A stretch of 40,070 bases of DNA from Elusimicrobiota bacterium (GTDB lineage Bacteria; Elusimicrobiota; Elusimicrobia; Elusimicrobiales; UBA9959): positions 1-40,070 of the forward strand of contig JBAXKK010000013.1 of the NCBI GenBank assembly GCA_037137395.1, in the 5' to 3' direction. Under the pieces are notes generated by a model, which was not told the DNA's origin, did not search any database, and was given only the letters and a program-made list of their open reading frames with translations. Made by a program: the position numbers and the translations under genes. The stretch's first letter is position 1. The number at the start of each line of letters is the position of its first letter. Positions 3,616 to 38,771 of the stretch are shown piece after piece.

Positions 3616-3658
3616 TCGAGTAATTACTAAAACTATCAGCGGCCTGCGGAGGCGGAAA

Positions 3659-4146: not shown

Positions 4147-4204
4147 ATCCCGGATCGCCGTGATTTCTTAAGGAAAATCAGAATAAATTAAGGAGAAATA
4201 GTAT

Positions 4205-4744
4205 ATGATCAGGAAAAAAGAAACTAAAAAAGATGAAAATATGGACATTGATTTTGGGATGGGAAAATTGAGCCTTGGCGGCTTGTTCGCGGGCATCGGG
4301 AAATTGGCCGAGCTGGCCGAAAAAATGAATGAGGCCGGCGGCGAAATCAAAAAAGAAGGCGAAATAGACCTCAGCCATCTCAAGAAAGGGATGAAGGGGG
4401 TTTTCGGGTTTTCCGTAAAGAACATGGCCGGTGGCAAGCCGGTCGTAGAACCCTTCGGCAACATAAAAAAGACGCCGCAGGGTCCTAGGGTTGAAGAAGA
4501 ACGCGAACCCATCACGGACGTATTCGACGAGAAAGAAGAGCTCCGTGTGTACGCTGAAATGCCCGGGGTGAACGAAGCGGACATTAAGCTGGATTTAAAG
4601 GGCGACATACTGGATATCCGGGCCGTGACCGGGGACAGGAAATACCACAAAGAAGTCCTGCTCACCTCCAAAGTGACGGCGGAGGCCCCCGTCCCGTCCT
4701 ATAAAAACGGCGTTCTGGAAGTGAAACTCAAAAAATGCCCCTGA
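4205..4744 (+). CDS. Hsp20/alpha-crystallin family protein (GvpH-like)
   Basis: REPITDVFDE..ELRVYAEMPGV...YKNGVLEVKLKK alpha-crystallin domain. AGGAG RBS. Confidence 0.88.
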   Translation: MIRKKETKKDENMDIDFGMGKLSLGGLFAGIGKLAELAEKMNEAGGEIKKEGEIDLSHLKKGMKGVFGFSVKNMAGGKPVVEPFGNIKKTPQGPRVEEEREPITDVFDEKEELRVYAEMPGVNEADIKLDLKGDILDIRAVTGDRKYHKEVLLTSKVTAEAPVPSYKNGVLEVKLKKCP

Positions 4745-7873: not shown

Positions 7874-7886
7874 AAAGGAGATGACT

Positions 7887-8951: not shown

Positions 8952-8966
8952 ACTGGGACGCGAACG

Positions 8967-9740: not shown

Positions 9741-9744
9741 AACT

Positions 9745-10521
9745 ATGACCACAGACGGCAGATATATATACTGCATCATCAAGGCAAATGGAACTCAAAC
9801 CTTCGGCCCGCTTGGGATCGGGGGGAGAGGCGACCAGCTTTACTCCATCGTCCACAATAATATAGCCGCTGTGGTGAGCAATTCCCCCATAACAAGCTAT
9901 CCTGTCTCAAGAGAAAACCTGATAGCCCATGAAAAGGCTATTGAAGAGGTTATGAAGGCGCATACCGTGCTGCCGGTCCGGTTCTGCACCATCGCCGGAA
10001 GCGATGAGAAAGTTAAGGGGATACTGGAGACCGCGCACGATAAATTTTATGATTTATTGGGCGTCATGGCCGGCAAAAAAGAGTTGGGGTTAAAAGCCGT
10101 ATTCCCCGTTAAAGGCGCGCAAGCGGGCGGGAAAGGGGACATTTACGGGCATATTCTGGAGAAACACGCGGACATAAGGGCTTTGAAAGAAAAAATAGCC
10201 GCGCTGCCCGTTAACCAGACCCATGCCCAGCGCATGGCAATAGGCGAGATGGTTGAGGCCGCCCTTGAACAGGAAAAAGAGCTCTGCAAAAATGATATTT
10301 TAGCCGTTCTGTCGCCCCTGGCCGCGGAAGTAAAAGTCAACAGTAATTACGGAGAGTTGATGATCTTGAGCGCCGCGTTCCTGGTTGAGTATAATAAAGA
10401 AGCCTACTTTGATAAACTGGTGGAGCAGCTGGACGCGAAATACGGCAACAGGATTAAATTTAAATATGTGGGGACCTTGCCGCCGTTCAATTTTGTGAAT
10501 CTGGTTATAAACACGGATTAA
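9745..10521 (+). CDS. gvpF: GvpL/GvpF-family gas vesicle protein (GvpF-like, upstream of gvpG)
   Basis: GRYIYCII, HEKAIEEVM, VLPVRFCT, SAAFLV, LPPFNFV. Confidence 0.85.
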   Translation: MTTDGRYIYCIIKANGTQTFGPLGIGGRGDQLYSIVHNNIAAVVSNSPITSYPVSRENLIAHEKAIEEVMKAHTVLPVRFCTIAGSDEKVKGILETAHDKFYDLLGVMAGKKELGLKAVFPVKGAQAGGKGDIYGHILEKHADIRALKEKIAALPVNQTHAQRMAIGEMVEAALEQEKELCKNDILAVLSPLAAEVKVNSNYGELMILSAAFLVEYNKEAYFDKLVEQLDAKYGNRIKFKYVGTLPPFNFVNLVINTD

Positions 10522-10537
10522 GCGGCTGCATAGGTCG

Positions 10538-10665
10538 TTTAGGCTGTAGGCTGTTAGGCTGTAGGGTAAAGACGCCGATTGAAAAAAGTTGTCATCCCGG
10601 CAATCAAAGCCGCTTGTCCACCATCTACCCTCCGGTGTTTGGCGGGTAGTGGTGGAGGAGCCATA
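10538..10665. repeat. TAGGCTG tandem units plus a REP-like half site and hairpin
   Basis: tttaggctgtaggctgttaggctgtagg, then aaaaagttgtcatccc and the hairpin ccaccatctaccc...gggtagtggtgg. The layout resembles 1742-1815. Confidence 0.65.
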
Positions 10666-10688
10666 AAGCAGGATCCAAGGTAATAAAA

Positions 10689-10928
10689 ATGTTCTTGATA
10701 GACAATATCCTGCTCTCGCACCTGAACGGCCTTCTTTGGCTGGGCAATAAAATCGACGAGATGTATGTAAAAGAGATATCCGATGAGGGGCGCGTGATGG
10801 AAAACCTTATGGCGCTGCAGCTCCAGTTTGAACTGGATGAAATAACCGAAACGGAATACAGCGCGCGGGAAAAAGACATTTTAGCGCAGCTGGAAGCCAT
10901 CAGAAAAATGAAGGAAGAGGAGAGATAA
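10689..10928 (+). CDS. gvpG: Gas vesicle protein GvpG
   Basis: MFLID.ILL...GL.WL..KI...L..LQLQFELDEITE.EY..RE..IL..L pattern. Confidence 0.88.
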   Translation: MFLIDNILLSHLNGLLWLGNKIDEMYVKEISDEGRVMENLMALQLQFELDEITETEYSAREKDILAQLEAIRKMKEEER

Positions 10929-10929
10929 A

Positions 10930-11187
10930 ATGCCCAATATCGAAGAAGCCGGGAAAGCGGCCGGCGAATTCCTGAAGAAAACTCTTAAGGTAAAAGAAAC
11001 AAAGGTTATCAAGGCGGTTAAAGCGGGGACCGGTTGGGAAGTGGAATCGGAGGTCTATGAGGAAAGCTCCCTTATGAAATCCCTCGGACTTCCCGTGAAA
11101 GTCCAGGATAGGAATGTATACACCGTCAAGCTCAGCGACGGCCTGGAGATAGAATCTTACATGCGCGGGCAGTCGTCCGCGGATTAG
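10930..11187 (+). CDS. gvpO: GvpO-like gas vesicle protein
   Basis: GWEVESEVYEE...YTVKL..GLEIESY pattern. Confidence 0.7.
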   Translation: MPNIEEAGKAAGEFLKKTLKVKETKVIKAVKAGTGWEVESEVYEESSLMKSLGLPVKVQDRNVYTVKLSDGLEIESYMRGQSSAD

Positions 11188-11196
11188 GGATCCATA

Positions 11197-12006
11197 ATGC
11201 AGGGTCTATATCTTTATTGCCTCAGGGAAAAAACCGGGAATCCGCCTGGGATGTCCGTAAAGGGCATTGACGGCGCGGGGGATATTTTTGTTATCCCATA
11301 TAAAGATCTGGAGGCGGTGGTAAGCAGGGTTTCATTGGAGGAGTTCGGTTCTGAGGAAATACAGAAAAAATCGCAGGATGATCTGAAATGGATCAGGGAA
11401 AAAGCCCTCGCCCATGAGAAAGTTATAGAGGGTGCGATGAAAAGCGGGGATAAGGTTTTAAGTGTGATTCCCATGCGCTTCGGGACAATTTACAAAGAAG
11501 CGGCGGGTTTGGAGGAAGCCCTGGGTAACGGCTACGCAAAGGCCGGGGAAAACCTGGATAAAATCCGCGGGAAACGGGAATGGTCCGTAAAGATGTACCT
11601 GAAAAACGTGTGGGAATTCGAACAGGTTGTAAAAGATAAAAACGGGGCGATAAAAGAGAAAGAAAAGGAAATGGCGGCTTTATCCGAGGGAATGGCGTTT
11701 TTTATGGAAGAAGAGTTGAGGGAGCTTGTGCGCAAGGAAGCCGATATCGAAGTGAATAATCTCGCGGATGAGGTTTTTGAAACTCTCGGCAAGCTGTCGG
11801 CAGCGTGTGTCAGAAGCAAGATCCTGGGGAAAGAATTAACCGGGAAGCCTGAACCCATGATTTTAAACGCCGCCTGCCTGGTTCCGGAGGAGAAAACCGG
11901 AACCTTTAAGCGGGAAATTGAAAACCTGAATCAAAAATTGACGGTAAAAGGGTTGTACCTTGAATGCGGCGGCCCCTGGCCCGCGTATAATTTTGTTTCT
12001 TTTTAA
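11197..12006 (+). CDS. gvpL: GvpL/GvpF-family gas vesicle protein (GvpL-like)
   Basis: GLYLYCL, WIREKALAHEKVI, VIPMRFGTIY, EWSVKMY, ILNAACLV, GPWPAYNF. Confidence 0.88.
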   Translation: MQGLYLYCLREKTGNPPGMSVKGIDGAGDIFVIPYKDLEAVVSRVSLEEFGSEEIQKKSQDDLKWIREKALAHEKVIEGAMKSGDKVLSVIPMRFGTIYKEAAGLEEALGNGYAKAGENLDKIRGKREWSVKMYLKNVWEFEQVVKDKNGAIKEKEKEMAALSEGMAFFMEEELRELVRKEADIEVNNLADEVFETLGKLSAACVRSKILGKELTGKPEPMILNAACLVPEEKTGTFKREIENLNQKLTVKGLYLECGGPWPAYNFVSF

Positions 12007-12010
12007 CGTT

Positions 12011-12565
12011 ATGATCGACAAATCAAAGAGCCTGATAAATAAAAATGAGCGCGTGACACTGGTGGACGCGCTGGATAAGGTCTTGGAGAAAGGCGCGGTC
12101 ATCAACGGCGATATAGTGTTGAGAGTGGCGGATGTGGACCTTGTGTTTCTGGGGCTGAGGCTCATTTTAACCTCCGTTTCCAAGGCGGAGGAATTATCCG
12201 GCAGAAATTTAAGCGACCGGAACAGGGGATTTACTCCCGAGGATACTGCCTACATCCAGAAACTGCAAACGGAAATAAGAAGAGCCGAGGAGAATATCCC
12301 CAAGCTTATCGACCTCGGCAGTCCCAAAAAAACGGAGCAGGGCTTGGCTAAACTGATCCTGACCCTGGTTGAACTGATAAGAAGGCTTATGGAGAAGGAG
12401 GCCTTCCGGAGGGTGAAAAAGGGCACCCTTTCCAAAGCGGAAGTCCAGAAACTGGGTTTAAGTCTTAAGGCGGTAAAGAAAAAAATAAAGGAAATTCAGG
12501 CGATCTTCGGCATCGCGGATGAGGACCTGAATCTGGACCTGGGGCCTTTAGGGAATTTAATGTAA
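12011..12565 (+). CDS. gvpK: Fusion of a GvpA-family (GvpS/J/M-like) domain and GvpK
   Basis: N-terminal TLVDALDKVLEKGAVINGDIVLRVADVDLVFLGLRLILTSV; C-terminal GLAKLILTLVELIRRLMEKEA...DLNLDLGPLG. ATG 12011 lies just after the upstream stop. Confidence 0.88.
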   Translation: MIDKSKSLINKNERVTLVDALDKVLEKGAVINGDIVLRVADVDLVFLGLRLILTSVSKAEELSGRNLSDRNRGFTPEDTAYIQKLQTEIRRAEENIPKLIDLGSPKKTEQGLAKLILTLVELIRRLMEKEAFRRVKKGTLSKAEVQKLGLSLKAVKKKIKEIQAIFGIADEDLNLDLGPLGNLM

Positions 12566-12572
12566 GGAAAAC

Positions 12573-12851
12573 ATGGAAAAAGAAGAATTGGGAATAAGCT
12601 GCCCGACATTTTTGAGACAGGAAACGGTAATTAAGGATATTACCGAGGAGATTAATCAGGCTAAAGGAGCGCGTGAAAAGACGCCATTTGCCGAAGAATT
12701 ACAGAAAGCGGCGGAGATGCTTTTGACTTGCGCGGATTATGACGATAAAAATTTGGACTGCAAGAATTGCCGCTTTATCACGAATTTGCGCAAGAGGACA
12801 ACTGCTTTAATTATAAAAGCTAAAAATTGGCAAAAGGGAAGAGGGGAATAG
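12573..12851 (+). CDS. Small hypothetical protein with Cys motifs
   Basis: AAGGA RBS, tightly packed in the operon, motif C...C.......CKNC. Confidence 0.65.
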   Translation: MEKEELGISCPTFLRQETVIKDITEEINQAKGAREKTPFAEELQKAAEMLLTCADYDDKNLDCKNCRFITNLRKRTTALIIKAKNWQKGRGE

Positions 12852-12852
12852 T

Positions 12853-13158
12853 ATGTCCGAACAAAAAATGATGCACGCCACCAACGCCACCAACCTGGCG
12901 GATATCCTGGAACGGGTGCTGGAAAAGGGCATTGTGATAGCCGGGGATATCAAAATTCAGATCGCCGATATTGACCTGCTCACTATCAAGATAAGACTTT
13001 TGGTTTGTTCCGTGGACAGGGCTATGGAGATGGGCATAAACTGGTGGGAAACCGACAGTTTCCTTTCCTCAAAAGCGAAAGAGGCCGAGATGGAAAAGGA
13101 AAACACGGAGATGAAAAAGCGGCTGGAGAAATTGGAGCAAAAAGTTAAGGCCGCGTAA
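12853..13158 (+). CDS. gvpJ: Gas vesicle protein GvpJ (GvpA family)
   Basis: LADILERVLEKGIVIAGDI...LLTIKIRLLVCSVDRAMEMGINWWETDSFLS followed by a coiled-coil tail. Confidence 0.9.
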   Translation: MSEQKMMHATNATNLADILERVLEKGIVIAGDIKIQIADIDLLTIKIRLLVCSVDRAMEMGINWWETDSFLSSKAKEAEMEKENTEMKKRLEKLEQKVKAA

Positions 13159-13169
13159 TTAACGTAAAT

Positions 13170-13415
13170 ATGGAAATTAACGGTATTGCGAAAATTGCCA
13201 AAGCGGAACTGGTTCAGCTTACCGGCTTCAGTGCTCCCGCCGCGATAGGGATAAACAAAGAAGCGGAGACCTGGCACATCACCGTAGAGATAATCGAGAA
13301 GCCCTCCAAAGCGGCCAACCTCGACCTTCTCGGAGTTTATGATGTCAGGATTGACGCTTCCGGAAAACTTCTCGGGTATGAGAGAATAAGAACGAGAAAA
13401 CGGTGTGAGAATTAA
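13170..13415 (+). CDS. gvpO: Gas vesicle protein GvpO/GvpR family
   Basis: WHITVEIIE...DLLGVYDVRIDASGKLLGYERIR. Confidence 0.82.
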   Translation: MEINGIAKIAKAELVQLTGFSAPAAIGINKEAETWHITVEIIEKPSKAANLDLLGVYDVRIDASGKLLGYERIRTRKRCEN

Positions 13416-26208: not shown

Positions 26209-26372
26209 TTGACAGTGAGTAAAATTACTCAGTATACTGAGTAAACCATGATACCCCTGGAATTCACACGTATACTCAAAACAAACAATTCCAGTCTCCT
26301 GGTTGGGGCAGACAGGGAATACCTCTTGAGGAATTTCTCTCCATGCCGCCGGACTCATGGCTCCAGCCTATA
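26209..26372 (+). pseudogene. Internally deleted remnant of a DUF4143 AAA ATPase gene with its promoter/operator
   Basis: Promoter matches 31120-31158. The ORF start MIPLEFTRILKTNNS corresponds to MTLPKFRRSVLKTINS. It is joined to LLVG and then, after a frameshift, QGIPLEEFLSMPPDSWL, which corresponds to the C-terminus of 31159..32364. Confidence 0.85.
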
Positions 26373-26557: not shown

Positions 26558-27190
26558 ATGAACTCCATTCAAAAGAACGTTTTGGCCCGTATGCGAAAAC
26601 TGGGGGTAGGGATGATCCACGCCAGCAAGGATTTCCTCTGCCTTGGTTCCCGCGCGGCGGTTGACCAAGCTCTATCGCGGTTGACCGAACACAAAACCAT
26701 TAGGCGGCTCGGCCAGGGGCTGTATCATATTCCTCGGATGAATCCGACTTTAGGGATTGAGCTCGCCCCGGATATGGATACGGTAGCCCATGCCATTGCA
26801 AGAAAAACAGGAAGCCGTGTCGTTCCTTCCGGCGCGGTGGCCGCAAACTGGCTCGGATTGTCTACTCAGGTTCCCGCGAAGCCGGTCTACCTGACTGACG
26901 GAAAATCCAGAAGTATTCGTGTAGGTAACACCGTGTTCACCATGAAACATGTCTCACCCAGAGACCTTCCCCTTGGCAGTTCAACAAGCGCCATGGTCTT
27001 CCAGGCGCTTCGCCATATAGGTAAAGAATCCATCAACGAAGATACTATTACGCATCTGCGTAAAAGGCTTGCCGCCAAAGACCAGCGGAAGCTGCTCAAA
27101 GACTTGTTGTATGTCACCGGCTGGATCGCCGAGGTGGCACGCAAAGTCTGCAAGAACGTCGGAGGTTTAGGAGAGGTGCGCCATGGATGA
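26558..27190 (+). CDS. Type IV TA antitoxin, AbiEi-like (DUF6088)
   Basis: DFL.LGSRAAVDQALSRL...IRRLGQGLY..P, AAN.LGLSTQVPAKPVYLTDG. Coupled to the downstream toxin. Confidence 0.85.
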   Translation: MNSIQKNVLARMRKLGVGMIHASKDFLCLGSRAAVDQALSRLTEHKTIRRLGQGLYHIPRMNPTLGIELAPDMDTVAHAIARKTGSRVVPSGAVAANWLGLSTQVPAKPVYLTDGKSRSIRVGNTVFTMKHVSPRDLPLGSSTSAMVFQALRHIGKESINEDTITHLRKRLAAKDQRKLLKDLLYVTGWIAEVARKVCKNVGGLGEVRHG

Positions 27191-28223
27191 TATCGCGCGT
27201 CTTTCCGAGAGTGATCGTTCCGAACTGTTTAGTACGGCATCCAGCATACGCGGAGACATGCTGCCCGCCCTGATCGAAAAAGATTTTTGGGTCTGCTGGA
27301 CGCTTAAGCGTATCTTCACCTTGAATAACCCGCCGGCGGGTCTCATTTTCAAGGGGGGAACAAGCCTATCCAAGGTTTATCAGGCCATTGACCGATTTTC
27401 AGAGGATGTCGATCTTTCCTTTGACCGGAGCGCGTTAGGATTCGGTGGCGAGAACGATCCTGCGAAGGCTCCAAGCAGGAAACAGGAAGCGAAGCGGCTG
27501 GAAGGTTTGTCGGCGGCTTGCAGGAAAATGATCCATACCCGGTTTCTGCCGCAACTCAGCGCTGCTTTTGCCGCCGCACTTGGCACGACTCGGTCAAAGG
27601 GGCTATGGCATATCGAACTTGACCGGGAGGACCCGGACGAGCAGACCTTGCTATTCCATTACCCGGCCGGAATTGGCGGGCGTGAGGGCGCTATGGCCAG
27701 ATACCTGCAACCGGTAATCCGGCTGGAACTTGGCGCGCGGGGAGAGCAGTGGCCTGCTGAGGAGGCGGCGGTCATGCCATACGCGGCCCAGGCCATCCCC
27801 AAGCCCTTCAAAGACCCTTCTTGCAAAGTGAAGGTACTGGCGCCTGAACGCACATTTTGGGAGAAGGCCACTATCCTGCATGCCTGCCATCACTTCCCTT
27901 CGGGGAAGGGTTTCCCGCGTCGCCAGTCCAGACATTACTATGATGTTGTAAAACTTTATGAAAAAGGCATCGGCAAGAAAGCTATCGGTGACTTGACGCT
28001 GCTTAAAAGCGTGGCGGAGCATAAGGCCGTTTTCTTCCGCTCCGCTTCCGCAAAGTACGATGAAGCGGTTCCGGGCAGCCTTAGGCTTGTTCCGCCGCCA
28101 TTCCGGAGAAAGGATTTGGAGGACGACTACGCTAAGATGCAAGAGATGTTCTTCAGCGCTCCGCCAGCGCTTGATGATATTCTTGCCGTGCTTACGGAAA
28201 TTGAACGACAGGTGAATGGGTAA
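27183..28223 (+). CDS. AbiEii/AbiGii-family nucleotidyltransferase toxin
   Basis: IEKDFWV, FKGGTSLSK, RFSEDVD, ERTFWEK, SRHYYD. Confidence 0.92.
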   Translation: MDDIARLSESDRSELFSTASSIRGDMLPALIEKDFWVCWTLKRIFTLNNPPAGLIFKGGTSLSKVYQAIDRFSEDVDLSFDRSALGFGGENDPAKAPSRKQEAKRLEGLSAACRKMIHTRFLPQLSAAFAAALGTTRSKGLWHIELDREDPDEQTLLFHYPAGIGGREGAMARYLQPVIRLELGARGEQWPAEEAAVMPYAAQAIPKPFKDPSCKVKVLAPERTFWEKATILHACHHFPSGKGFPRRQSRHYYDVVKLYEKGIGKKAIGDLTLLKSVAEHKAVFFRSASAKYDEAVPGSLRLVPPPFRRKDLEDDYAKMQEMFFSAPPALDDILAVLTEIERQVNG

Positions 28224-28432: not shown

Positions 28433-28450
28433 GCCCCCGCAACCAAATTT
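28433..28450 (+). mobile_element. tRNA-fMet 3'-end fragment, probable att (attR) site
   Basis: gcccccgcaacca equals the 3' acceptor end of bacterial initiator tRNA. No tRNA body lies upstream, and a terminator follows. The 18-mer recurs at 28682-28699. Confidence 0.65.
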
Positions 28451-28484
28451 AAAGCCCTCGGAAATATCCGAGGGCTTTTTTATT
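28451..28484 (+). terminator. Rho-independent terminator
   Basis: aaagccctcgga-aata-tccgagggcttt followed by a T-tract. Confidence 0.85.
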
Positions 28485-28488
28485 ACAG

Positions 28489-28694
28489 GCGGGGGAGCGA
28501 GACAACTGCTTGTCCCGCGTCAGGATTTGAAAGGTAGGGGAAACCGCAATGCGGTGTCCACCTGTGGTTTATGCAGTTGGAAAGGGTGCCGGGAGCGTTG
28601 GCGAGTCAGCAGACGAGTCCGTGAGCCGGGGTCGCGACCTCAGGTGAGCGACGGCGAGCCTGAGAGTTGTGACAAAATCCTGCCCCCGCAACCA
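28489..28694 (+). ncRNA. Structured tRNA-like element ending in the tRNA-fMet T-stem/acceptor 3' end (CCA)
   Basis: gcggggg (28489) pairs with cccccgc (28683); caggattt (28521) pairs with aaatcctg (28675). Several internal hairpins. Ends in ...gcaacca. Confidence 0.45.
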
Positions 28695-28719
28695 AATTTC
28701 AGTTTCTCGACGATAAACC

Positions 28720-28750
28720 GGCTCACGCAAAAACCGTGGGCCTTTTTTTT
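28720..28750 (+). terminator. Rho-independent terminator
   Basis: ggctcacg-loop-cgtgggcc followed by T8. Confidence 0.65.
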
Positions 28751-28896
28751 GCCGTTTTTTATCGCTTTATGTCGCAAGGTTTTGTGCCTTGCGGTGTAAC
28801 AAGATTTTCAATTTTGATAACTTGATAGTGTTCTAAAACATAAAAATGTAAAATCTGGAAATGGATTAGTGGAGCAGATACAAGGGAGCGACAACC

Positions 28897-30732
28897 ATGG
28901 AATTGCTATCGCCTAGCGCATCTTTCGCCAATATTAGGAGATTCGCCAAAGAGGCGCATAAAACCGCCGAAGATTTTGGTCTGGCTCTGGACAGGTTCGG
29001 GCGAGAGCCTGGTGAGGCCTGGCATGCCGCGGCCGACGGGTTCAGGGAAAAGTTGACCGGGCTGGAGAAGGAACTGGCCGGTGTAAAAGATAAAACCTCT
29101 CTGCCGGCTACGGCGCGAAAGGAATTCGCCGCCCGGGTACAGGCGCTTGCCGTGGATCTGGCCGAGCTGCGCCCTACGCTGCGCTGCGCGGTGCTGGACG
29201 CCTGTCCGCAGGCGGAGATAAAACATCCAGCGGGTGGCACGGCCGAAACAGTGTGGAAGAACTATGACAAACTTACGGCCGGTATTACGGACCGCGTGCT
29301 GCGGTTGGACGCTGTGGTTAGGCTGGCGCAGCGATCCCACGGCCCCGCTGCCGCCTTCGCGCTGATCTGCCCTGCGCTGGAAGAGCGCCTGGGCGCGGCT
29401 GATATATTTAATGTCTTGCCGGCACTCGGGGTATTATTGCAGCACATCCCTCTGCCGCGCCTCGGTGGGCTCACACTTATGGAGAGCATTGCGAATGATT
29501 TCAGGGAGCAGGCGCTTTCCGGCGCCGCCGCGGACGGCCTTTTCGCCAGATTTTTAGAAGGGATGCTGTCCGGGGACCCCGATCGGCGCAAAGCGGCCCG
29601 CAAAGAGCTTGATTGTGCAAGGAACGCCAGTAGTGACGAGCGCTACGGCCGCGCTTCAGAGGATGGTTTTTCCAACAGCAGGGAAATATTGGGCGTCTGG
29701 TCAGGCGTGAAAGCCGCGCTTACCGACCCCGATCCGGTCCGCCGGAGAGCTGCGCTCTGCGCCCTCCCTGCCCTGCAGTTCAGTTTTATTACGCGTGATT
29801 CCCGCGGAGACTGCGCAGAATTTGTCGCGCGCGGCATGGATGATGAAGATGGGACAGTGCGGTATAAGACGCTGCGCTTCGCCTCGGACCTGGCATTGAT
29901 AGGTAGGGTGGATGATCAGGAAATTCTCGCGCTGCTGGAGAAAACCGCCGAGCGCCTGATTTCCGAAACGAAGAAGAAAAGGCCGCAGTCGGCGGCTTGC
30001 GCGCGAAAGCTGCTAAAACGAATAACCGGCCTCCGCAAGTATGACAGGGAGAGGGCAAATTTCACCGCGCCCCGCGTCGCAGAGACGGAGGGCGAAGGGC
30101 GTGAACTCTCTTTTACGGTGCCTCGCAGGTTGCCTTTTGAGACGGTATTCCAGTTCAAAATAACCCTGCTCGGAACGCAGCCGCCGATCTGGAGGCGGTT
30201 GCAGGTGCCGGGTTCCTATACTTTCTATGACTTGCATGTCGCAATTCAGAACGCCATGGGGTGGTCCGACAGCCATCTGCACGTTTATGAAATCGGAGAG
30301 AAACGGAAGGTTTGCATTGAGTCGCCCTACGCGGTCGAAGACCTGGAGGAGAAGCCGTATGGCTTTACTCCGGAAATAATGCTTAGACAATTCTTTAAAA
30401 AGGAAAACGACTCTGCGATTTATGTCTATGATTTCGGAGACGACTGGCGGCACGAAGTGCTGCTTGAGGATATACAGCTTAAAAAGACTGGGCTTAAATA
30501 TCCAATGTGTATGGACGGGGAGCGGGCCTGCCCTCCAGAGGATTGTGGCGGACTCGGCGGCTACGTGGGTTGCGTGGCGGCGGCGACCAATAAAGCTATT
30601 CCGGAAGAGGATGACGAGGCCCTCGCACTGCTGACCTGGCTGGACGGCTGGACTCCGGAGAAATTCAATCCAAAAGACGTGGTTTTTGAGAATCCGGCCA
30701 AGCGTTTTCTCGACAGTTTCGAAGAAGACTGA
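28897..30732 (+). CDS. Plasmid pRiA4b ORF-3-family protein with a long helical/HEAT-like N-terminal extension
   Basis: C-terminal FKITL...PPIWRRLQVP...DLH.AIQ.AMGW.DSHLH, YDFGDDW.H and GERACPPEDCGG. Middle ALTDPDPVRRRAALCAL and MDDEDGTVRY are HEAT-like. Confidence 0.85.
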   Translation: MELLSPSASFANIRRFAKEAHKTAEDFGLALDRFGREPGEAWHAAADGFREKLTGLEKELAGVKDKTSLPATARKEFAARVQALAVDLAELRPTLRCAVLDACPQAEIKHPAGGTAETVWKNYDKLTAGITDRVLRLDAVVRLAQRSHGPAAAFALICPALEERLGAADIFNVLPALGVLLQHIPLPRLGGLTLMESIANDFREQALSGAAADGLFARFLEGMLSGDPDRRKAARKELDCARNASSDERYGRASEDGFSNSREILGVWSGVKAALTDPDPVRRRAALCALPALQFSFITRDSRGDCAEFVARGMDDEDGTVRYKTLRFASDLALIGRVDDQEILALLEKTAERLISETKKKRPQSAACARKLLKRITGLRKYDRERANFTAPRVAETEGEGRELSFTVPRRLPFETVFQFKITLLGTQPPIWRRLQVPGSYTFYDLHVAIQNAMGWSDSHLHVYEIGEKRKVCIESPYAVEDLEEKPYGFTPEIMLRQFFKKENDSAIYVYDFGDDWRHEVLLEDIQLKKTGLKYPMCMDGERACPPEDCGGLGGYVGCVAAATNKAIPEEDDEALALLTWLDGWTPEKFNPKDVVFENPAKRFLDSFEED

Positions 30733-30817
30733 GCCGGTAGAGGTAAGGAGATATCTAAGTGAAGCCACTTAAGATGTTGAGTGAATTCCTTATTTACAAG
30801 GATGGGGGGGCGCCGAT

Positions 30818-31027
30818 ATGAAAGCGATTTTAGAATTCAATCTTCCGGAAGAGGATGCGGACCATCGTGTTGCGTTGGATGGATGGAAATGGAAATCAGT
30901 TTTATATGGCGTGGATCAATGGCTGCGAAAGCTGGAAAAGCACGAGGATAAAGACACTATTGCCGTTACAGAAGTGCGGAAGCGCATCCATGAAGAGCTT
31001 AATGATTCCGGATTGACCTTCGATTAG
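30818..31027 (+). CDS. Small phage-like hypothetical protein
   Basis: MKAILEFNLPEE...A..G..W......DQWLR resembles a common phage hypothetical family. G-rich RBS. Confidence 0.6.
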   Translation: MKAILEFNLPEEDADHRVALDGWKWKSVLYGVDQWLRKLEKHEDKDTIAVTEVRKRIHEELNDSGLTFD

Positions 31028-31063
31028 CGCAGATAATGGCGAATTCTCCTAAATCCTGCTCAT

Positions 31064-31096
31064 TGACTTTTTTATAGTGGTGGTATAAAAAAGTCA
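31064..31096. promoter_or_regulatory. Perfect 13-bp inverted repeat overlapping TTGACT/TATAAA
   Basis: tgacttttttata-gtggtgg-tataaaaaagtca. Confidence 0.5.
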
Positions 31097-31119
31097 TTTT
31101 GTGCGTTTAACAGGTATAT

Positions 31120-31158
31120 TTGACACTGAGTGAAATTACTCAGTATAATGAGTAAATT
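31120..31158 (+). promoter_or_regulatory. Consensus sigma70 promoter with TGAGT/ACTCA operator palindromes; near-leaderless transcript
   Basis: TTGACA-18-TATAAT, ATG 9 nt after the -10, no SD sequence, ttactcagtataatgagtaa near-palindrome. Confidence 0.8.
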
Positions 31159-32364
31159 ATGACACTACCAAAATTCAGACGGTCGGTTCTCAAGACAATC
31201 AATTCCAGACTACAGGAAAAACGCAAATTCATTCAGGTCCTGATGGGGCCGCGGCAGGTGGGGAAGACAACTTTAATAAGGCAGTTCCTCAAAGGCAGTA
31301 AAAATCCGCACCATTATGCCTCGGCGGACGAGCCTTCATTGCGGGACCATACCTGGATAGAGGCCCAGTGGGAGATTGGCCGGCTGCGGGCGCAGGATGC
31401 GGGCAAGAACGGAGCTGTTTTTATACTGGATGAGGCCCATAAAGTTCCAAATTGGTCGGAAGTGGTCAAGCGGTTATGGGACGAAGATACTGCCGAGGGT
31501 AGGAATCTTAAAGTCGTCTTGCTCGGTTCCTCGCCTTTATTGATTCAAAAGGGTTTGACTGAAAGCCTTGCGGGTCGGTTTGAGCTGATTCGGATTCCAC
31601 ACTGGTCGTTTGCGGAAATGAAAGGAGCATTTGGCTGGAGATTGGACCAATACCTGTATTTCGGCGGTTATCCGGGATGCGCCGAGCTTGTGCCGGATGA
31701 AGAGCGCTGGCGGCGGTACATACAAGATTCTTTGGTTGAAACTACTCTATCGCGCGATATTCTCTTACAAACACGTGTAGATAAACCTGCGCTTCTGCGG
31801 CAACTGTTCCGCCTTGCCTGCGACTATTCCGGTCAGATACTGTCCTACCAGAAAATGATGGGACAGTTGCAAGGTGCTGGTAACACCGTCACACTCGCGC
31901 ACTATTTGGAACTCTTATCAGGCGTCGGCATGGTAACCGGACTGCAAAAATATTCCGGCAGCCGTCTGCGGCAGCGCGGATCCAGTCCTAAACTAATCAC
32001 CCTGAATACGGCGCTTATGACCAGCGGCACCAATCAAACTTACACTGCAGCGCGTGAAAACAGCGATATATGGGGGCGGCTTGTGGAAACGGCTGTCGGC
32101 GCCCACTTGGTTAATAGCCTGGCTGGAACCGGTACAGAGGTCCTCTATTGGCGTGAGGATAACAGAGAAGTGGACTTTGTCCTTAAAAGGCATGATAGGC
32201 TTATAGCTTTGGAGGTTACCAGTTCCAGGCGCAAGGACTCGGTCCCGGGGATGGCGCTATTTGCTAAGGAATTCCATCCGCAAAAGAAGCTTCTTGTGGG
32301 GGGGCAGGGTATTCCTCTTGAGGAATTTCTTTCCAAACCGGCTGACTTTTGGTTCAAGCTTTGA
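31159..32364 (+). CDS. AAA_14 ATPase with a DUF4143 domain
   Basis: GPRQVGKTT, ILDEAH, LGSS, ESLAGRF, YFGGYP, GRLVETAV, YWRE..EVDFV. Confidence 0.92.
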   Translation: MTLPKFRRSVLKTINSRLQEKRKFIQVLMGPRQVGKTTLIRQFLKGSKNPHHYASADEPSLRDHTWIEAQWEIGRLRAQDAGKNGAVFILDEAHKVPNWSEVVKRLWDEDTAEGRNLKVVLLGSSPLLIQKGLTESLAGRFELIRIPHWSFAEMKGAFGWRLDQYLYFGGYPGCAELVPDEERWRRYIQDSLVETTLSRDILLQTRVDKPALLRQLFRLACDYSGQILSYQKMMGQLQGAGNTVTLAHYLELLSGVGMVTGLQKYSGSRLRQRGSSPKLITLNTALMTSGTNQTYTAARENSDIWGRLVETAVGAHLVNSLAGTGTEVLYWREDNREVDFVLKRHDRLIALEVTSSRRKDSVPGMALFAKEFHPQKKLLVGGQGIPLEEFLSKPADFWFKL

Positions 32365-32821
32365 GTGGTTTATTGGCAAAATTGAATCGAAATACTCGCG
32401 AAATCGGCCCTAAAAACCCTCGCGCTAAACCTATCCGGTGACATAATACTTAATTCCCTGTGTTGGACTGTTTTACAACCAAAACTTCATAAACCGCGCC
32501 ACAAGCATGGGAACGGGTTATCGGGGACGGTTCTCTGTAACACTTCGTTATCGCATAATTTGCTTATGGGGAGAAAAGCCAACAGGCCTTGGTGGCCGCT
32601 GCTTCCTAACTTCCTAATTAAGGTTTAGGGTTATTTTTTAGATCAAATGCGTCACAACCGGCCTTTAATCTGACAGCGGGTAAAGTTGTGGTCTCTTTAG
32701 CTCAAACGCTCTCCTGTAAAGCCCCCCAAAGGGCCCCAGAATCCACCAAAAAAACTAAACCCACCCCGACAAGACGCTGTCGGGGTCGTCTGCTACGCTA
32801 TTAATACGGCAAGGGGGGATT

Positions 32822-33670
32822 ATGGCAAACAAAAAGATCACGAAGAGCACGAATTCAATTCTGCCGCCCGGGTATAGCCATTTCCTGAAGGATTTAAAAA
32901 TACGCATTAAGGCTGCCCAGGTGCGGGCAGTCCTTTCGGTTAATCACGAAATGACAGGGGTGTATTGGTATATTGGAAAATCCATAGTATATCGCCAGCA
33001 GAATATCGAATGGGGAAACTCAGTAGTGGACCAACTAGCGGTGGATATTCATCACGAATTTCCGGGAATTGAGGGTTTTTCTCCGCGCAATATATGGCGA
33101 ATGCGGGCTTTTTATAAAGCCTATACGCAGCCGGGAATAATTCTGCCACAACTTGCGGCGGAATTGGATGGGGAAAATCTGCCACAGGCTGTGGCAGAAA
33201 TACCGTGGGGGCACAATATTATCCTATTGGAGAAACTTAAGCTCCCTTTGGAGCGTATTTGGTATGCGAGGGCTATAATGGAATATGGGTGGAGCCGCAG
33301 CATGTTGGTTCATCACATAGGCGAGGGCCTGATCAACAGGCAGGCTAAAGCCCTCAGCAATTTCAACCGCACGCTTCCGCCCCCGCAATCGGATTTAGCC
33401 CAGCAGGTCCTTAAGGATCCATATTTCTTTGATTTTGTAACGCTATACGCGGACTCCCATGAGAAGGATCTGGAGCAGGGACTACTGGGCCATATTCAGA
33501 AGTTCCTTGTTGAGCTAGGCGTTGGGTTTGCATTCGTAGGGAGACATGCCGGGCACAAGGGCCGGCAGCACAACCTTCATGGAAAAGCTGCCGCAGAACT
33601 CCGGCAGCAGCACATGGCGTGCCCGGAACGGCGACGCCAGGTCCACAAGCCCGAGCACGGAATAAGGTGA
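32822..33670 (+). pseudogene. Truncated DUF1016/YhcG PD-(D/E)xK nuclease
   Basis: YW.IG, GFSPRNIWRMRAFY, IPWGHN, KDPYFFDF and ELG.GFAFVGR are present. Similarity stops at about 33546, before the expected catalytic IDLLFY/ELK motifs. Confidence 0.8.
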
Positions 33671-33710
33671 CACACAACTTAATTAGAAATAAGTTGTGTG
33701 TCACTTTATT
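33661..33710. repeat. 21-bp-arm inverted repeat (REP-like)
   Basis: aataaggtgacacacaactta / taagttgtgtgtcactttatt, 20 of 21 complementary. Confidence 0.8.
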
Positions 33711-33854
33711 TATTTTGGCCGGGATGGGGCGTACTAAAAACAAAAATAAGCCTGTCGCGGCGAAGAAATAGTAGAATTAAGTATTGGGTTTGTAATCGGG
33801 GCTATACAACATGACAAATGTGAAACAGCTGACTGAAAATATTATTGCTTTTCA

Positions 33855-34112
33855 GTCGGAAGCAGCAATAACAAGCTGGTTCTGGTGCAGCACAGCTCTA
33901 TAGCCGACCCCGACACCGGCGGCAGCTACACCGTAAAGAAATACACCAGCAAAAAGAAATACGCCCCAGACGGCACCTGGCAGCACGAAGAAATAATCCT
34001 AAAGCCCCTGAACCCGGCCTACAGCGACATCGTCATCCCGACCGTGGAAGACGAAGAATTTATGGTCGTTGCGGAATATGTTAATAAAGTGGTAGAGCCA
34101 AATGATGAATAA
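33855..34112 (+). pseudogene. 5'-truncated C-terminal S24/LexA-like domain fragment of a larger nuclease/helicase
   Basis: The frame reads GSSNNKLVLVQHSSIADPDTGGSYTVKKY...IILKPLNPAY..I and has no proper start. Confidence 0.55.
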
Positions 34113-34425
34113 ATGGGGAATTCCAGATTGGCTTGAGCATGAGGTCCGACAGAGAGACAAGACGTGCATTTATTGTGGCATTACAATGCTTGAATCATCC
34201 TCATCGGATGGTTCGCGAAAAGCAGTTGCGACTTGGGAACACATTATTAATGATGCTCGAATGGTTACTAGAGAAAATATAGCTAGGTGTTGTGTCTCTT
34301 GCAATGCTAGTAAAGGCGCGCAAAAACTATCAGAATGGTTAGATTCCAAGTATTGCAAGGAACATGGTATTTCCAGGGAAAGTGTCGCTGATGTTGTAAA
34401 AAATGCTCTAAATAACAACACATAG
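34102..34425 (+). CDS. HNH endonuclease
   Basis: VRQRDKTCIYCG, WEHI, ENIARCCVSCNASKG. Confidence 0.85.
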   Translation: MMNKWGIPDWLEHEVRQRDKTCIYCGITMLESSSSDGSRKAVATWEHIINDARMVTRENIARCCVSCNASKGAQKLSEWLDSKYCKEHGISRESVADVVKNALNNNT

Positions 34426-34507
34426 ATTGATTACAAATATTATTCGGCTGCAATTCATGTCGCCTAAAATAGAACTGGTTTTGAGATAAAGACCATAAGC
34501 AAATTAA

Positions 34508-35395
34508 ATGCTCGAAAAAGACATTGAAAATCTAATTGCCAGATATCCTAAGGAATTCTTCCCGAAGGAAGAATTTTTATTGCTCGGGCAACAACATGCT
34601 ATTGAAGGGCGCCGCATCGACATTCTGTTCCAGGACAAGTTTGGCAGAAAGATTATTGTAGAGGTGAAGCGCGGGATTATTACACGCGAGGCTTCAGGGC
34701 AGGTAATGGATTATGGGCTAATGAAAAGCAAAAGCCAGGATATTTGTGAGCTGATCTTATGTGCAAATGTTATCCCAAGCGAACGAAAGTGTTTTCTTGA
34801 GAATGCCGGCATAGAGTGCAAAGAGGTTAGCGTTGGATTTATAACAGACCTGGCAAAACGGGTGGGGTATATGTTTATCGATTCAGAGAAAGAGGCTTCT
34901 GGAAATTCTGGGATAACAAGTTCATCTGTGCTGCCAGTTGCTCTTAGGGATTCTAATACTTCTGTTTGGATGTTCCAGGCGAATCCAGATAAATATGACA
35001 TACTCAACGCACTTTCAGATGAGAAAATAGGGAATTCTATCCATTGGCTGGTTAATCAGCATAAAGGAGAGATCCGGCAGGGGCATATCGGATTGCTTTG
35101 GATGTCAGGCAAAGACTCAGGCATTTATGCGGTCGCACAGATAACATCAGCCCCGCAACTAATGGAGGAATACCCTGAAGAGAAGAAGTACTGGCTAGGG
35201 GATGAAAAAGGGGTAGGGCAACGATTGCGGGTTAGTATGAGTGTCGCGAAGCGTTTAACTAATGCCCCTTTGTTTAGAAAAGCCATTAAAGATATAAAGG
35301 GATTAGAGGGCCTCTCTATTCTAAAGAACCCGCAAGGCACTAACTTCCCAGTCAGTAATGCGGAATGGGAAATAATTTTGGAACAGATTAAATAA
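34508..35395 (+). CDS. NucS-like PD-(D/E)xK nuclease fused to an EVE domain
   Basis: N-terminal LEKDIE, RIDIL, IVEVKRG, GQV..Y. C-terminal WMFQANP..YD, W.V, GIYAVAQI, L.ILKNPQGTNFPVS..EW..I. Confidence 0.8.
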   Translation: MLEKDIENLIARYPKEFFPKEEFLLLGQQHAIEGRRIDILFQDKFGRKIIVEVKRGIITREASGQVMDYGLMKSKSQDICELILCANVIPSERKCFLENAGIECKEVSVGFITDLAKRVGYMFIDSEKEASGNSGITSSSVLPVALRDSNTSVWMFQANPDKYDILNALSDEKIGNSIHWLVNQHKGEIRQGHIGLLWMSGKDSGIYAVAQITSAPQLMEEYPEEKKYWLGDEKGVGQRLRVSMSVAKRLTNAPLFRKAIKDIKGLEGLSILKNPQGTNFPVSNAEWEIILEQIK

Positions 35396-35553
35396 GAATA
35401 TTTATATGGTGGATGTGCAGTAATGTAATCTTTTGTGTCCCTGGATGGCAAAACGATGATGATCCTTCCGGAAAGACTCCAAGACCACACCCAGCCACAG
35501 ATTTTTTGAACTGGCATAATCAAAACCGATATCTAGAGTGAGACTTCGCGCTT

Positions 35554-37539
35554 ATGAAACGAGAATACTACTCAGCCTCAATCACCAGTCTTTGTGCCGC
35601 TAAACCGGAAGAAGTAATCGGTATTTTAAGTGCCGGCAGTGCTACTGCGGGGTTCCCTGTTACACCAGAGCAGACTGGCGCCTGGCTTCAACAGATAGAG
35701 ATTCTTAAAAAAGCGCTTAAGGGGAAAGTGGGCAAGATCTATTTCGAGTACTCCATCCCACGCATGGGGCGCAGGATAGACGTTGTGCTTCTTATTGAGC
35801 ACGTAATCTTTGTGCTGGAGTTCAAGGTCGGCGCGCAGGACTTTTCGGCTTATGCGGTGGACCAGGTGCTGGATTACGCGCTGGACCTTTCCAATTTCCA
35901 CGAAACCAGCCACGGTAAATATGTTGCCCCGGTGCTTATCTCCACAGAGGCCGAGCCCCAACCGGTGGTCGTGGGCTGCTCCGCCAACAACCCAAAGCTA
36001 TTCATGCCCATCAAATGCGCCGTCTCGCAGATCAACGAGGTTATTGCCTCGGCACTCTCCTTTGCCGATGGTCCCAGCATAGCCGCCGAAACCTGGGAGG
36101 GCGGGCGCTACTCGCCTACGCCCACCATAGTGGAAGCTGCCATGGCTTTATACCGTGGTCATAAAGTGGCGGAGATTTCCAGAAGCGATGCTGGCGCTAT
36201 AAACCTGGACCAGACCTCTGCCAGTGTTGCGCAAATAATAGCCGCCGCCCGCGCGGGCTCGCGCAAGGCCATCTGCTTTGTAACAGGCGTCCCCGGCGCG
36301 GGGAAAACCCTTGTGGGCCTTAATATCGCCACCACCCACATAAATAAAGACGACGAGTTATACAGCGTCTTCCTTTCCGGTAATGGCCCTCTTGTGGCGG
36401 TACTGCGGGAGGCCCTCGCTCGGGACAAGGTTCTGCATGAAAAGGCCAAGGGTAACAAGGTAAGAAAGGGTGTGGCCTTCAGTGAAGTTAAAATGTTCGT
36501 CCAGAATGTCCACAACTTCCGGGATTCCTGTTTGGTAGATTCAAAGCCACCTATAGAGCACGTGGCGCTTTTCGATGAGGCCCAGCGGGCCTGGGATCTG
36601 CAGCAGACGGCCAACTTCATGAAGCGCAAGAAGAAGCGCCCCAACTTCAACCAGTCCGAGCCGGAGTTTTTGATCTCCTGCCTGGACCGGCACCCGGACT
36701 GGGCCGTGATCGTGTGCCTTGTGGGCGGCGGGCAGGAGATAAACACTGGCGAGGCCGGCATAAGCGAGTGGATAGACTCGCTCCTGCGCAAGTTCCCCGG
36801 TTGGGACGTTTACATTTCGCCGCGCATAACCGACAGCGAGTACGGTGCGGGCTCGGTCATAGCCAAATTAAAAGAGACGCCGCTGAAGGTGGAATATAAG
36901 GACGAGCTGCACCTGGCCGTTTCGCTGCGCTCTTTTCGTGCTGAGCGCGTCTCCGAGCTGGTGAAAAAGGTGCTGGACCTGGAGGCCGCCGCCGCCAAAG
37001 AAACGCTTAAGGATATTGGTGGCAACTACCCTATAGTGCTTACCCGCGACCTGCAGAAAGCCAAGGCCTGGCTTAAGGCCCGCGCGCAGGGCACCGAGCG
37101 CTATGGCATAGTGGTGTCTTCCCAGGCCGAGCGCCTTAAGCCCTACGCTATCGACGTGAAATCCCCTGTGGACCCGGTTGATTGGTTCCTGGCCGGCAAG
37201 GATGACGTGCGTTCGTCCTACTATCTGGAAGATGTCGCCACGGAATTCCATGTGCAGGGCCTGGAGCTGGATTGGGCCTGTGTCACCTGGGACGCCGACA
37301 TGCGCCACACGCCGGGCGGTTGGGAGAACTGGTCATTTAAGGGCAACAAATGGCTGCGCATCCTCAAAGACGCGCGCAAAGCTTACCAAAAGAACGCCTA
37401 CCGCGTTCTCCTAACCCGCGCCCGCCAGGGCATGGTGCTGGTGGTGCCGGAGGGGGATGCTGAGGACCATACCCGGCTCCCGGAGTATTACGATTCAACA
37501 TATAAATATCTTGCGCAGATTGGTTTTTTAGAGATTTAA
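35554..37539 (+). CDS. DUF2075 (Schlafen group 3-like) DNA/RNA helicase with an N-terminal nuclease-like domain
   Basis: [59 protein letters not shown]. Confidence 0.9.
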
Positions 37540-37565
37540 TGTTCCCAAGGTAAAGCGAATCGAGT

Positions 37566-38771
37566 ATGAAACTGCTGATCCTCGTTATTATCTTCATCAT
37601 AGTCGTTAACCTCCTTAAGGCAGCAATGCCGAAGCTTCGCTCGTCCCACAGGCACTGGGCAGGCAAAAGAACCTCCTCATATCGGCCAATCTTCACCCCA
37701 CAGACCGGGAAGGCGGTGATAATAGGGGAAAGCGGCGCCTGGCTTAACCTCTGCAGGGAGTTGCGCGAGAAAGGCCTGCCAATAAATAGACCAGCCGATG
37801 CGCGGTTGCTCCTGGAAAGACTGCGGGCCGGGCAGAAAGCGGCCATAGACGAATTTCACACCGAGATTGTCGGGTGCATACGCCATATCAACGATAAGAT
37901 AGCCGCCCGGCGGGCCCAGAGCGGCATTATGGCCACATTGTTCAATTGGTTCCATATCTGGACCCTAAAGAATAATGTTGTCAGCCTGTATGCGCTTGAG
38001 CGGCGTTATGCCAGCATACTGCAAGAGAACATCGCCACCCTGGAGGCGATGTATAAATCACCGGAGTATGCAGGCGCTCACGCTGAACTGGACGTAATAA
38101 TGAAACTGCGCGGCCTGCCCGGCAACTACGTGGTAATGAATAATTTGCAGTTACATGCCAGTCGGTTCATTAAATTCGAAGGCGTTCCGCTTCAAAGCGC
38201 CCAAATAGATCATCTAGTGCTTTCACCTGCGGGGATATTTATCATTGAGACCAAGCGCTGGAGCAAGAGCTTCGCAAAGTCCGGTTCTTATCACAACCCC
38301 TTCGACCAAGTGCAGCGCGCGCGCTACCTTTGCGCCGATCTGCTTAAATCGAACTTCGGCAAGCTGCCGGTGCGAAGCATAATACTCACGGAGGGCGCTC
38401 TGCCGCCTGCGCCGCCGGATTCATATGTGAAGGTACTGCATTTAGATGACTTGAACGGCTATATCACCTGGTTCAAGCAGCGTGAATTGTTCCCAGAGCA
38501 GCAGACCGCCATACGCGCGCTCTTGGAAGAGCATGTGATAAAAATGGAGTTACCTCTGGTTGCTGTTGAGGAACCGGCGCCAGTAGAATTACTGGATAGC
38601 GATCTTCTAAAGGACCTGCAAACGGAAATGCGTGCAGGCAGTAAGCCAGAGCCATATCAGCGTCGCGCGGTGCTAATCCCTACCGAGCCGCCGCCGCTAA
38701 AAGCCCCCGAGGATGTAAAATACATGCCGCCCTCCATGCGGGCGGAATTCGACAAGAAAAAACACTTGTAG
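37566..38771 (+). CDS. Membrane-anchored NERD-domain nuclease-like protein
   Basis: N-terminal hydrophobic segment, GAHAE, QIDHLVLSPAGIFIIETK.W, NPFDQV. Confidence 0.85.
   Translation: MKLLILVIIFIIVVNLLKAAMPKLRSSHRHWAGKRTSSYRPIFTPQTGKAVIIGESGAWLNLCRELREKGLPINRPADARLLLERLRAGQKAAIDEFHTEIVGCIRHINDKIAARRAQSGIMATLFNWFHIWTLKNNVVSLYALERRYASILQENIATLEAMYKSPEYAGAHAELDVIMKLRGLPGNYVVMNNLQLHASRFIKFEGVPLQSAQIDHLVLSPAGIFIIETKRWSKSFAKSGSYHNPFDQVQRARYLCADLLKSNFGKLPVRSIILTEGALPPAPPDSYVKVLHLDDLNGYITWFKQRELFPEQQTAIRALLEEHVIKMELPLVAVEEPAPVELLDSDLLKDLQTEMRAGSKPEPYQRRAVLIPTEPPPLKAPEDVKYMPPSMRAEFDKKKHL

Follow-up and report, generated by a model that had tools for sequence, protein, structure and literature searches.

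What kind of object follows the tRNA-fMet 3' fragment in the 40,070-nt stretch of Elusimicrobiota DNA analyzed here (the window): an imitation of a tRNA, a repeat linked to tRNA genes, or a small element that moves? An initial annotation listed a tail fragment, terminators, the segment GCGGGGG, a hairpin, an inverted T-arm and a direct tail copy, and all of these pieces were located in the window (Table 1). The ends of the element are one inverted and one direct copy of the tRNA-fMet tail. Folding of 28486-28695 with RNA parameters gave -96.6 kcal/mol (z -4.49), a value equaled by 0 of 200 shuffled sequences, and DNA parameters gave z-scores of -3.05 for the + strand and -2.34 for the - strand. 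The ends had been predicted to pair into two stems, and the computed fold agrees. These stems had also been likened to an acceptor stem and a T-stem; they do form, but by pairing with positions 65-71 and 57-64, one base off register and with no T-loop. ARAGORN called no tRNA and no tmRNA in the window, in line with the earlier statement that the structure is neither. The Rfam 15 scan that had been recommended returned nothing for the window at the gathering score and nothing credible by E-value, and no family was matched at 17 loci of the sequence family described below.

Table 1. Parts of the element and its flanks in the window
Feature	Position	Strand	Remark
tRNA-fMet 3' fragment, positions 64-76	28433..28445	+	sequence comparison
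Trailer hairpin / bidirectional intrinsic-terminator-like site, belongs to the repeat unit	28451..28478	+	missing from the empty allele of G003
GCGGGGG, inverted copy of tRNA positions 65-71	28489..28495	+	pairs with the upstream tail or the downstream direct copy
Side hairpin H1 with flanking A and GT	28496..28520	+	9-bp stem 28497-28518, conserved loop
Anti-T arm, inverted copy of tRNA positions 54-64	28521..28531	+	spans the putative insertion point between 56 and 57
Core arm P2: tandem G-A blocks, AGCA tip	28532..28627	+	interrupted close to its base by the nested repeat
56-nt repeat with two hairpins, nested, from another family	28535..28590	+	no visible target duplication
Core arm P3	28630..28674	+	ends where the direct copy begins
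Direct copy of tRNA-fMet positions 57-76	28675..28694	+	20 nt, identical to the tRNA-fMet of three same-genus genomes
Second terminator-like hairpin	28720..28742	+	original trailer, outside the element

About 140 inner nucleotides had been regarded as the insert of the element. Their hairpins are real, but 56 of these nucleotides, including the first inner hairpin then quoted, are a foreign repeat. Since uninterrupted relatives measure 153 nt between landmarks that lie 209 nt apart here, the window element is a composite. Its H1 stem has one A-C mismatch, and its last core base (28674) is A where the family has C, which suggests that this copy is probably worn; it is a damaged copy of a family element. 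The nested repeat, which we take to resemble REP sequences, starts with GTAGGGG and belongs to a separate population. The window's own genome (G000) holds three further full or partial copies and one weak match, and many copies occur in G003, G004, G008, G016 and G019 (about 15-20 matches in G003, G004 and G016). In this genome the repeat also lies away from tRNAs. It sits inside other repeats, inside genes and in one tRNA-Pro 5' copy, again with no target duplication visible; beyond the window, its sites include contigs C28, C9 and C66 of G000 and loci L010, L013, L017, L030, L418 and L421.

The extent of the unit was defined by an empty site. In G003, a genome of the same genus, tRNA-fMet continues straight into the sequence that follows the direct copy in the window (90% over 107 nt): the tRNA-fMet end and trailer of this element-free allele can be aligned to the direct copy plus some 90 bases beyond it. 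This alignment places the boundaries of the unit at tRNA position 57 and at the end of P3, with the first terminator included. Judged by the alignment, the direct copy is likely the displaced original tRNA 3' end, and the empty site may reflect a precise loss as easily as the state before insertion. None of the three same-genus tRNA-fMet genes found is directly followed by an element. Contigs from four DNA runs covered pieces of the element and held no joint that skips it, although contigs cannot show absence; in one of the runs, two contig pieces overlap across the element.

The present tRNA-fMet of the genome lies on another contig (C103), beside a frameshifted large serine recombinase (L039, 84-1824) whose C-terminus is read through the tRNA on the opposite strand. 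The same island occupies tRNA-fMet in G001 (L414). This current tRNA has T50-A64 and both element arms keep the G64 of the relatives, indicating that the arms track neighboring DNA and not the current tRNA. An island likely came between the tRNA gene and the element, with the tail fragment ahead of the element as its right end (attR), and we infer that C103 and the window contig represent the two ends of that island. Since the island would have separated this copy from its tRNA and a second repeat was inserted into it, the window copy is probably inactive. With the nested repeat removed, its core is 89% identical to a tRNA-Ala copy in G003 and 87% identical to a tRNA-Leu copy in G008.

Several other features of the window were recorded. 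Just after the second terminator (28770-28790) lies a short motif, present as three repeats behind tRNA-fMet in G003 (L412), that possibly represents recombinase arm sites of a downstream island. Genes of defense-island type flank the element on both sides (26558-28223 and 28897-38771) and include a DUF6088 and AbiEii pair, pRiA4b-ORF3, AAA-DUF4143, DUF1016/YhcG, NucS-EVE, a Schlafen-type helicase and NERD. A gas-vesicle cluster occupies 2586-13415 (four GvpL/F, GvpK, GvpO, two GvpA/J-type proteins, and CDC48-like and ArsA-type ATPases). Between 14218 and 23662, two nearly parallel blocks about 5.5 kb apart, each with a PAS histidine kinase, 209-aa and 260-aa ORFs and a response regulator, look like a tandem duplication. 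A palindrome-rich segment of 62 nt, 81% identical at 26209-26270 and 31120-31181, precedes two genes 4.9 kb apart.

The element belongs to a large family. BLAST found it in 26 of 41 relatives, and a covariance model built from 10 copies detected it in 56 of 151 genomes of the phylum, including 6/7 and 40/45 genomes in two families of the order, with at least 19 matches in the richest genome (20 candidates scored per genome). Presence is patchy within the genus, and units also occur in tandem arrays. Host tRNAs were counted in a pool of 80 regions around the best-listed model matches and 55 earlier sources: a same-strand tRNA lies within 700 nt upstream of 138 of 158 unique hits, with 29 isoacceptors represented. 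The proposal of a tRNA-linked repeat with arms matching each local tRNA was thus confirmed over 29 tRNA types. The other 20 hits mostly follow, by eye, a tail fragment or a cut tRNA, and two of them are a reverse-orientation subtype; the window copy itself follows a tail fragment only. In one genome (G017; L083 788-923 and L085 246-376), the core is reversed between tail copies and the tail is broken between positions 58 and 61/62.

Three of the 45 ARAGORN calls in the window's own genome (Arg-TCT, Arg-TCG and Val-TAC) are followed by a family element. Behind five more calls we observed a second tRNA-linked type, with an unbroken mirrored arm and, by eye, a different purine-rich core (contigs C24, C43, C62, C77, C113 and C106; L034-L038). 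These type B loci gave no match to the family model, and Rfam gave nothing beyond tRNA.

A pattern scan of species genomes extended the range further, with at least 118 loci in 11 of 64 parts and an estimated total of about 700. Taking the labels as given, 43 of the 118 belong to Patescibacteria lineages, most others to Elusimicrobia and a few elsewhere; 106 of 125 pattern matches lie behind a tRNA or tmRNA. The model found 3 to 14 matches in each of five pattern-scan genomes. Eleven of these matches are in a complete 753-kb genome (G170), where a crude detector placed arm plus core at 13 of 40 tRNA/tmRNA calls. At two tRNA-Glu genes of G170 (L384 and L386), the arm mirrors approximately positions 69-76 plus the trailer instead of the T-arm, which suggests that the target is not strictly the T-loop. 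Near-identical cores are observed across different tRNAs and across two phyla: 67 of 96 elements have their closest core behind another tRNA, and cores are up to 81% identical between Elusimicrobia and Patescibacteria.

We then analyzed the architecture of the unit across the family. On average, the mirrored T-arm agrees with its own host at 10.4 of 11 positions, whereas shuffled hosts gave 8.2, with a maximum of 8.5 in 1000 shuffles; this set comprised 97 elements, the remaining 16 of 113 unique elements having no clean core end. The inverted 65-71 segment likewise changes with the host tRNA, and none of the parsed family elements has arms matching a tRNA other than its host. In 58 aligned copies, 93.8% of cells are paired and 49 of 53 pairs show two-sided changes, with slid-partner controls at 34-42%; the alignment was fitted to the structure and its sequences are related. 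All 9 pairs of H1 show two-sided changes, with 98.5% of cells paired in the same 58 sequences, and H1 stems, whose boundaries were chosen for pairing, contain 884 Watson-Crick and 4 G-T pairs. Arm P3 holds two conserved G-U pairs. In 151 of 168 elements, the trailer hairpin and the mirrored acceptor arm form one continuous fold-back.

At the other end of the unit, the direct copy, read backwards, stays identical to the host as far as C56 and no further in 99 of 114 parsed elements (of 120 elements standing first in their array, 6 had no parsable junction and were dropped), and 14 of the 114 carry a TC-to-GA swap opposite positions 57-58. Direct copies are often scarred or decayed, and 66 of 170 are out of register. 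An in-register CCA ends 27 of 97 of them, and 25 of 37 where the host gene encodes CCA. Differences between direct copy and host peak at positions 60-61 (13 and 12 of 104, with at most 5 at any other position), marking a scar or locking hotspot. On whether the direct copy follows the mirrored arm, the count was 1 vs 1 of 104. In 39 of 97 elements the trailer, too, is repeated by the downstream copy. These results indicate that the family is real and strongly conserved, and it is absent from Rfam 15.

The plan of the unit is that of the tRNA-linked repeats (TLRs) of E. coli, a precedent that the initial annotation had not named, and the family is a new variant within TLRs. In the sections of PMC8144298 used here, TLRs are defined by a 3' segment of 18-19 bp identical to the 3' end of the upstream gene; they are noted there as known since 1978, are said to "have no known function", and the rRNA-linked ones are described as RNAs with modest effects. 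TLRs sit immediately behind a tRNA or rRNA gene. The family shares the position behind a tRNA gene (138/158) and the tail copy, which is 20 nt here and found family-wide with decayed cases. It also shares an inverted T-arm copy that closes a structured core, a feature that we read from the E. coli units ourselves and that is not part of the published definition. Inverted copies of their own T-arm were present in the tyrT/tyrV, serX, proK, lysQ and lysV units of E. coli K-12, and glyY, checked in the same way, has no such unit. Trailer, inverted T-arm, GA-rich core, direct tail, arrays, repeated terminators and truncated last copies follow one plan in both; the E. coli Tyr, Ser and Pro units have the same TC-to-GA swap opposite 57-58 as the 14 family members, and the RtT model (Rfam RF00391) pairs both arms as the family does. 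By contrast, direct copies start at 58/59 in E. coli TLRs and at 56/57 in the family, which in addition has H1 splitting the mirrored arm and tmRNA targets. RF00391 matched none of 5 family-rich genomes and none of 17 family loci at its 45-bit threshold, the E. coli control being positive; conversely, neither of the two E. coli loci tested scored above 7.8 bits with the family model, and no core homology was detected in either direction. Taken together, these findings indicate that the element works like a TLR and is not an RtT.

Our literature search met no description of the family or of the inverted arm in TLRs, the latter of which may be described in Rudd 1999, Egan and Landy 1978 or Bosl and Kersten 1991/1994. 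The main text of PMC8144298 contains no "inverted", "mobile" or "duplicat" wording, and the family is not described in the available parts of bioRxiv 10.64898/2026.09.22.753630, PMC5737381, PMC5217627 and bioRxiv 10.1101/2024.07.17.603846. TwoAYGGAY (RF01731) and the DUF3800 motifs resemble the family, according to the portions of their descriptions at hand, as multi-copy structured intergenic elements. Kinship with them was rejected: there was no Rfam match, AYGGAY loops are lacking, and those portions mention no tie to tRNA tails.

Other systems share single features with the family. Integron attC and CTX phage attP are folded single-stranded recombination sites. As in these sites (for attC, see the structure passage of PMC5737381), inverted arms of the family rebuild a site-like duplex from one strand, parts are extrahelical and structure is conserved over sequence; unlike them, the family has arms that are tRNA tail copies and has no integrase gene or cassette array attached. 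As for a cognate tyrosine recombinase, no dedicated integrase tracks the element, and a resident recombinase pair, which could conceivably act on the folded strand, is present in all genomes compared. Elements of the IS200/IS605 type, with Y1 transposases and IS608-type guides, choose their targets by a base-pairing guide. Together with REP/REPIN-RAYT systems (REPIN passages of bioRxiv 10.1101/2024.07.17.603846), they resemble the family as short non-autonomous DNA hairpins that spread in trans with a base-pairing target guide. The family differs in being tied to tRNA/tmRNA 3' ends with tail duplication and in not being tracked by Y1 or RAYT genes, and no co-occurring RAYT flanked by the repeat was found. 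The window's own genome has four RAYT-like Y1 genes (contigs C47, C4, C17 and C46), three of them with their own distinct short flanking repeats, unrelated to the element. Tyrosine integrases also place islands and prophages at tRNA T-loops, leaving the gene intact and a tail copy downstream. The family unit, by contrast, is only ~200 nt long, contains no ORF and no integrase, has an internal inverted arm, and shows identity from 56/57 that does not cover positions 54-55 of the 7-base T-loop.

Does the conserved fold act as RNA or as DNA? The + strand, which has the sense of the tRNA, folds better than its complement in 167 of 170 cases with DNA parameters and in 163 of 170 with RNA parameters. 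In predicted folds of related sequences, 197 core hairpin loops comprise 95 of the cGNAg/cGNYAg/cAGNAg types (45 loops represent one inherited loop, GTCA), 6 GNRA and 1 UNCG. Shuffled cores gave DNA-type loops in 1 of 227 cases, and the neighboring trailer hairpins (71 loops) have 16 GNRA, no cGNAg or cGNYAg and one cAGCAg. According to section 2.3 of PMC13037366, DNA mini-hairpins with GNA triloops or GTTA loops are much more stable than the RNA counterpart tested there, and the passages of PMC10085684 consulted describe CGAG tandem G-A blocks in DNA hairpins, together with GNNA tetraloops and an AGCA loop interpreted as a GNA triloop. Furthermore, a terminator, consisting of a hairpin followed by a U-tract, precedes 63 of 97 cores. 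The loop types, the shielding by terminators and the loss of CCA favor a role as single-stranded DNA and disfavor a tRNA mimic.

The boldest suggestion of the initial annotation, a tRNA mimic, here taken as an RNA with an aminoacylatable CCA end, was not supported. In the window copy, two stacked stems do form from the ends and leave ACCA unpaired. A 7-bp acceptor on 66-72, a 5-bp T-stem with T-loop and a conserved CCA, as expected of tRNA, tmRNA or tRNA-like structures, were not found: the register is shifted by one, there is no T-loop, CCA is present in 27 of 97, the loops are of DNA type, and most cores lie behind a terminator. Moreover, direct copies decay faster than the pairing of the mirrored arm to the real gene. 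We consider such a mimic extremely improbable.

We favor, with slightly better than even confidence, a non-autonomous element that would move as a folded single + strand and be joined at the T-loop between positions 56 and 57, guided by its mirrored arm. The unit would comprise the tRNA tail from position 57, the trailer hairpin, the mirrored tail with its side hairpin and the two structured arms. The folded single DNA strand of this unit would move, its 11-nt mirrored arm would pair across the 54-64 target, and an enzyme supplied from elsewhere would join it between positions 56 and 57 of tRNA genes. Integration would restore the tRNA with the unit's own tail and push the old tail downstream, where it would become the direct copy. 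Copy number could then shift by slippage between direct copies, and cores might pass to other hosts when loci exchange sequence with each other or with single-stranded DNA that enters the cell. The proposal of a tiny non-autonomous element targeting tRNA 3' ends is therefore also our preferred one. We keep it conditional, as searches found neither an enzyme nor a free intermediate; the single-stranded intermediate, the guide and the enzyme are all putative.

These searches covered several candidates. In the family of genomes with 40/45 carriers, a Y1 transposase is present in 16 of 45 genomes, a reverse transcriptase in 11 of 45 and the RAYT-like protein of G170 in 2 of 45, none of them tracking the element. 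Five element-rich and five element-free genomes have integrase sets alike in kind, and all ten hold a conserved recombinase pair, which we read as XerC/D, plus island integrases. The covariance model had no match in 57 loci around integrases and Y1 genes, and no recombinase recurs beside 125 element loci; among the neighbors of 45 plus 125 loci, only pilin-like and housekeeping proteins recur. Between G170 and the window's own genome, 253 of 912 ORFs matched, and none of the proteins among the matches listed tracks the element. A crude detector found no leading/lagging bias in G170 (6/25 vs 7/15, p 0.17). Phage and plasmid collections gave no family match, and viral contigs gave one in four pattern scans, a prophage-like contig whose tRNA-Ser tail carries an array. 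On this contig (L043), mixed element subtypes lie behind the tRNA-Ser tail at the prophage end, and a reverse transcriptase gene, DGR-like by eye, is located 3 kb away.

The missing mismatched-arm elements count against a mover of the att type, which should leave them on target change, and the repeated trailers fit copying in place or array contraction as well. An alternative would dispense with a dedicated enzyme: units would arise by replication template switching and be maintained by gene conversion and slippage. The nascent strand would fold back at the trailer hairpin, copy the tail backwards, switch to a donor core by way of the T-arm consensus common to both, fold back and recopy the tail; tandem inversion duplications arise by comparable fold-back steps. 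Fold-back continuity (151/168), arms that always match the local host, trailers repeated after the direct copy (39/97), the lack of a co-occurring enzyme and the near-perfect H1 palindromes (4 G-T against 884 Watson-Crick pairs) all speak for this path. Nevertheless, H1 breaks the mirrored arm at a fixed register, which a single fold-back would not give, the two window trailers are unrelated beyond 6 bases, and the conservation of loops and G-A blocks implies that something recognizes them. We judge template switching unlikely, though far from negligible.

A role as RNA, like that of RtT or RrA/B/F, is a doubtful prospect. Here the unit would be co-transcribed, cut at the duplicated tail, and act as a protein sponge or tune tRNA maturation by T-arm pairing. 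The tRNA-sense fold obtained with RNA parameters (163/170) and the two conserved P3 G-U pairs agree with this, and the sections of PMC8144298 used here report transcription, processing and Hfq/CsrA binding for E. coli TLRs. Against it stand the DNA-type loops, the terminator ahead of 63 of 97 cores and the patchy presence within the genus. The window copy, moreover, has a terminator directly upstream, no promoter-like site nearby, and arms with G64 where the tRNA has A64; the same sections of PMC8144298 report that an E. coli strain devoid of all 22 TLRs was built and grown. Very unlikely, in our view, is a decoy or shield kept by the host, in which spare tails would absorb phage and island integration or the fold would mask the site. 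Several copies, including that of the window, adjoin island ends or tail fragments, and the defense-type genes on both sides of the window copy would suit such a role. The island here, however, appears to have come in at the tRNA gene, on the upstream side of the element; positions 54-55 are absent from direct copies, which often show scars or decay (66/170 out of register); and a decoy would not need the conserved core.

Returning to the folded single-strand reading, a broader form of it is conceivable, although we hold it to be more probably wrong than right: TLRs across bacteria might be one class of self-guiding single-stranded DNA elements, with an 11-nt T-arm guide rewritten on target change, inserted by a new enzyme or by a housekeeping recombinase in a new role and passing between phyla as naked single-stranded DNA.

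Many short duplications of tRNA 3' ends, which annotation would otherwise label as island scars, are accounted for by these units. The E. coli TLRs were investigated as RNAs. A separate family that turns over fast, with hundreds of copies, arms matched to 29 tRNA types and tmRNA, DNA-type loops and cores shared across phyla shifts the question to DNA mobility, which can be tested in E. coli K-12, for which a strain devoid of all 22 TLRs exists according to the consulted part of PMC8144298. If an insertion enzyme that rewrites its guide were found, it would represent new recombination chemistry, and if the self-guiding class is true, it would constitute a new, reprogrammable mechanism of site-specific insertion.
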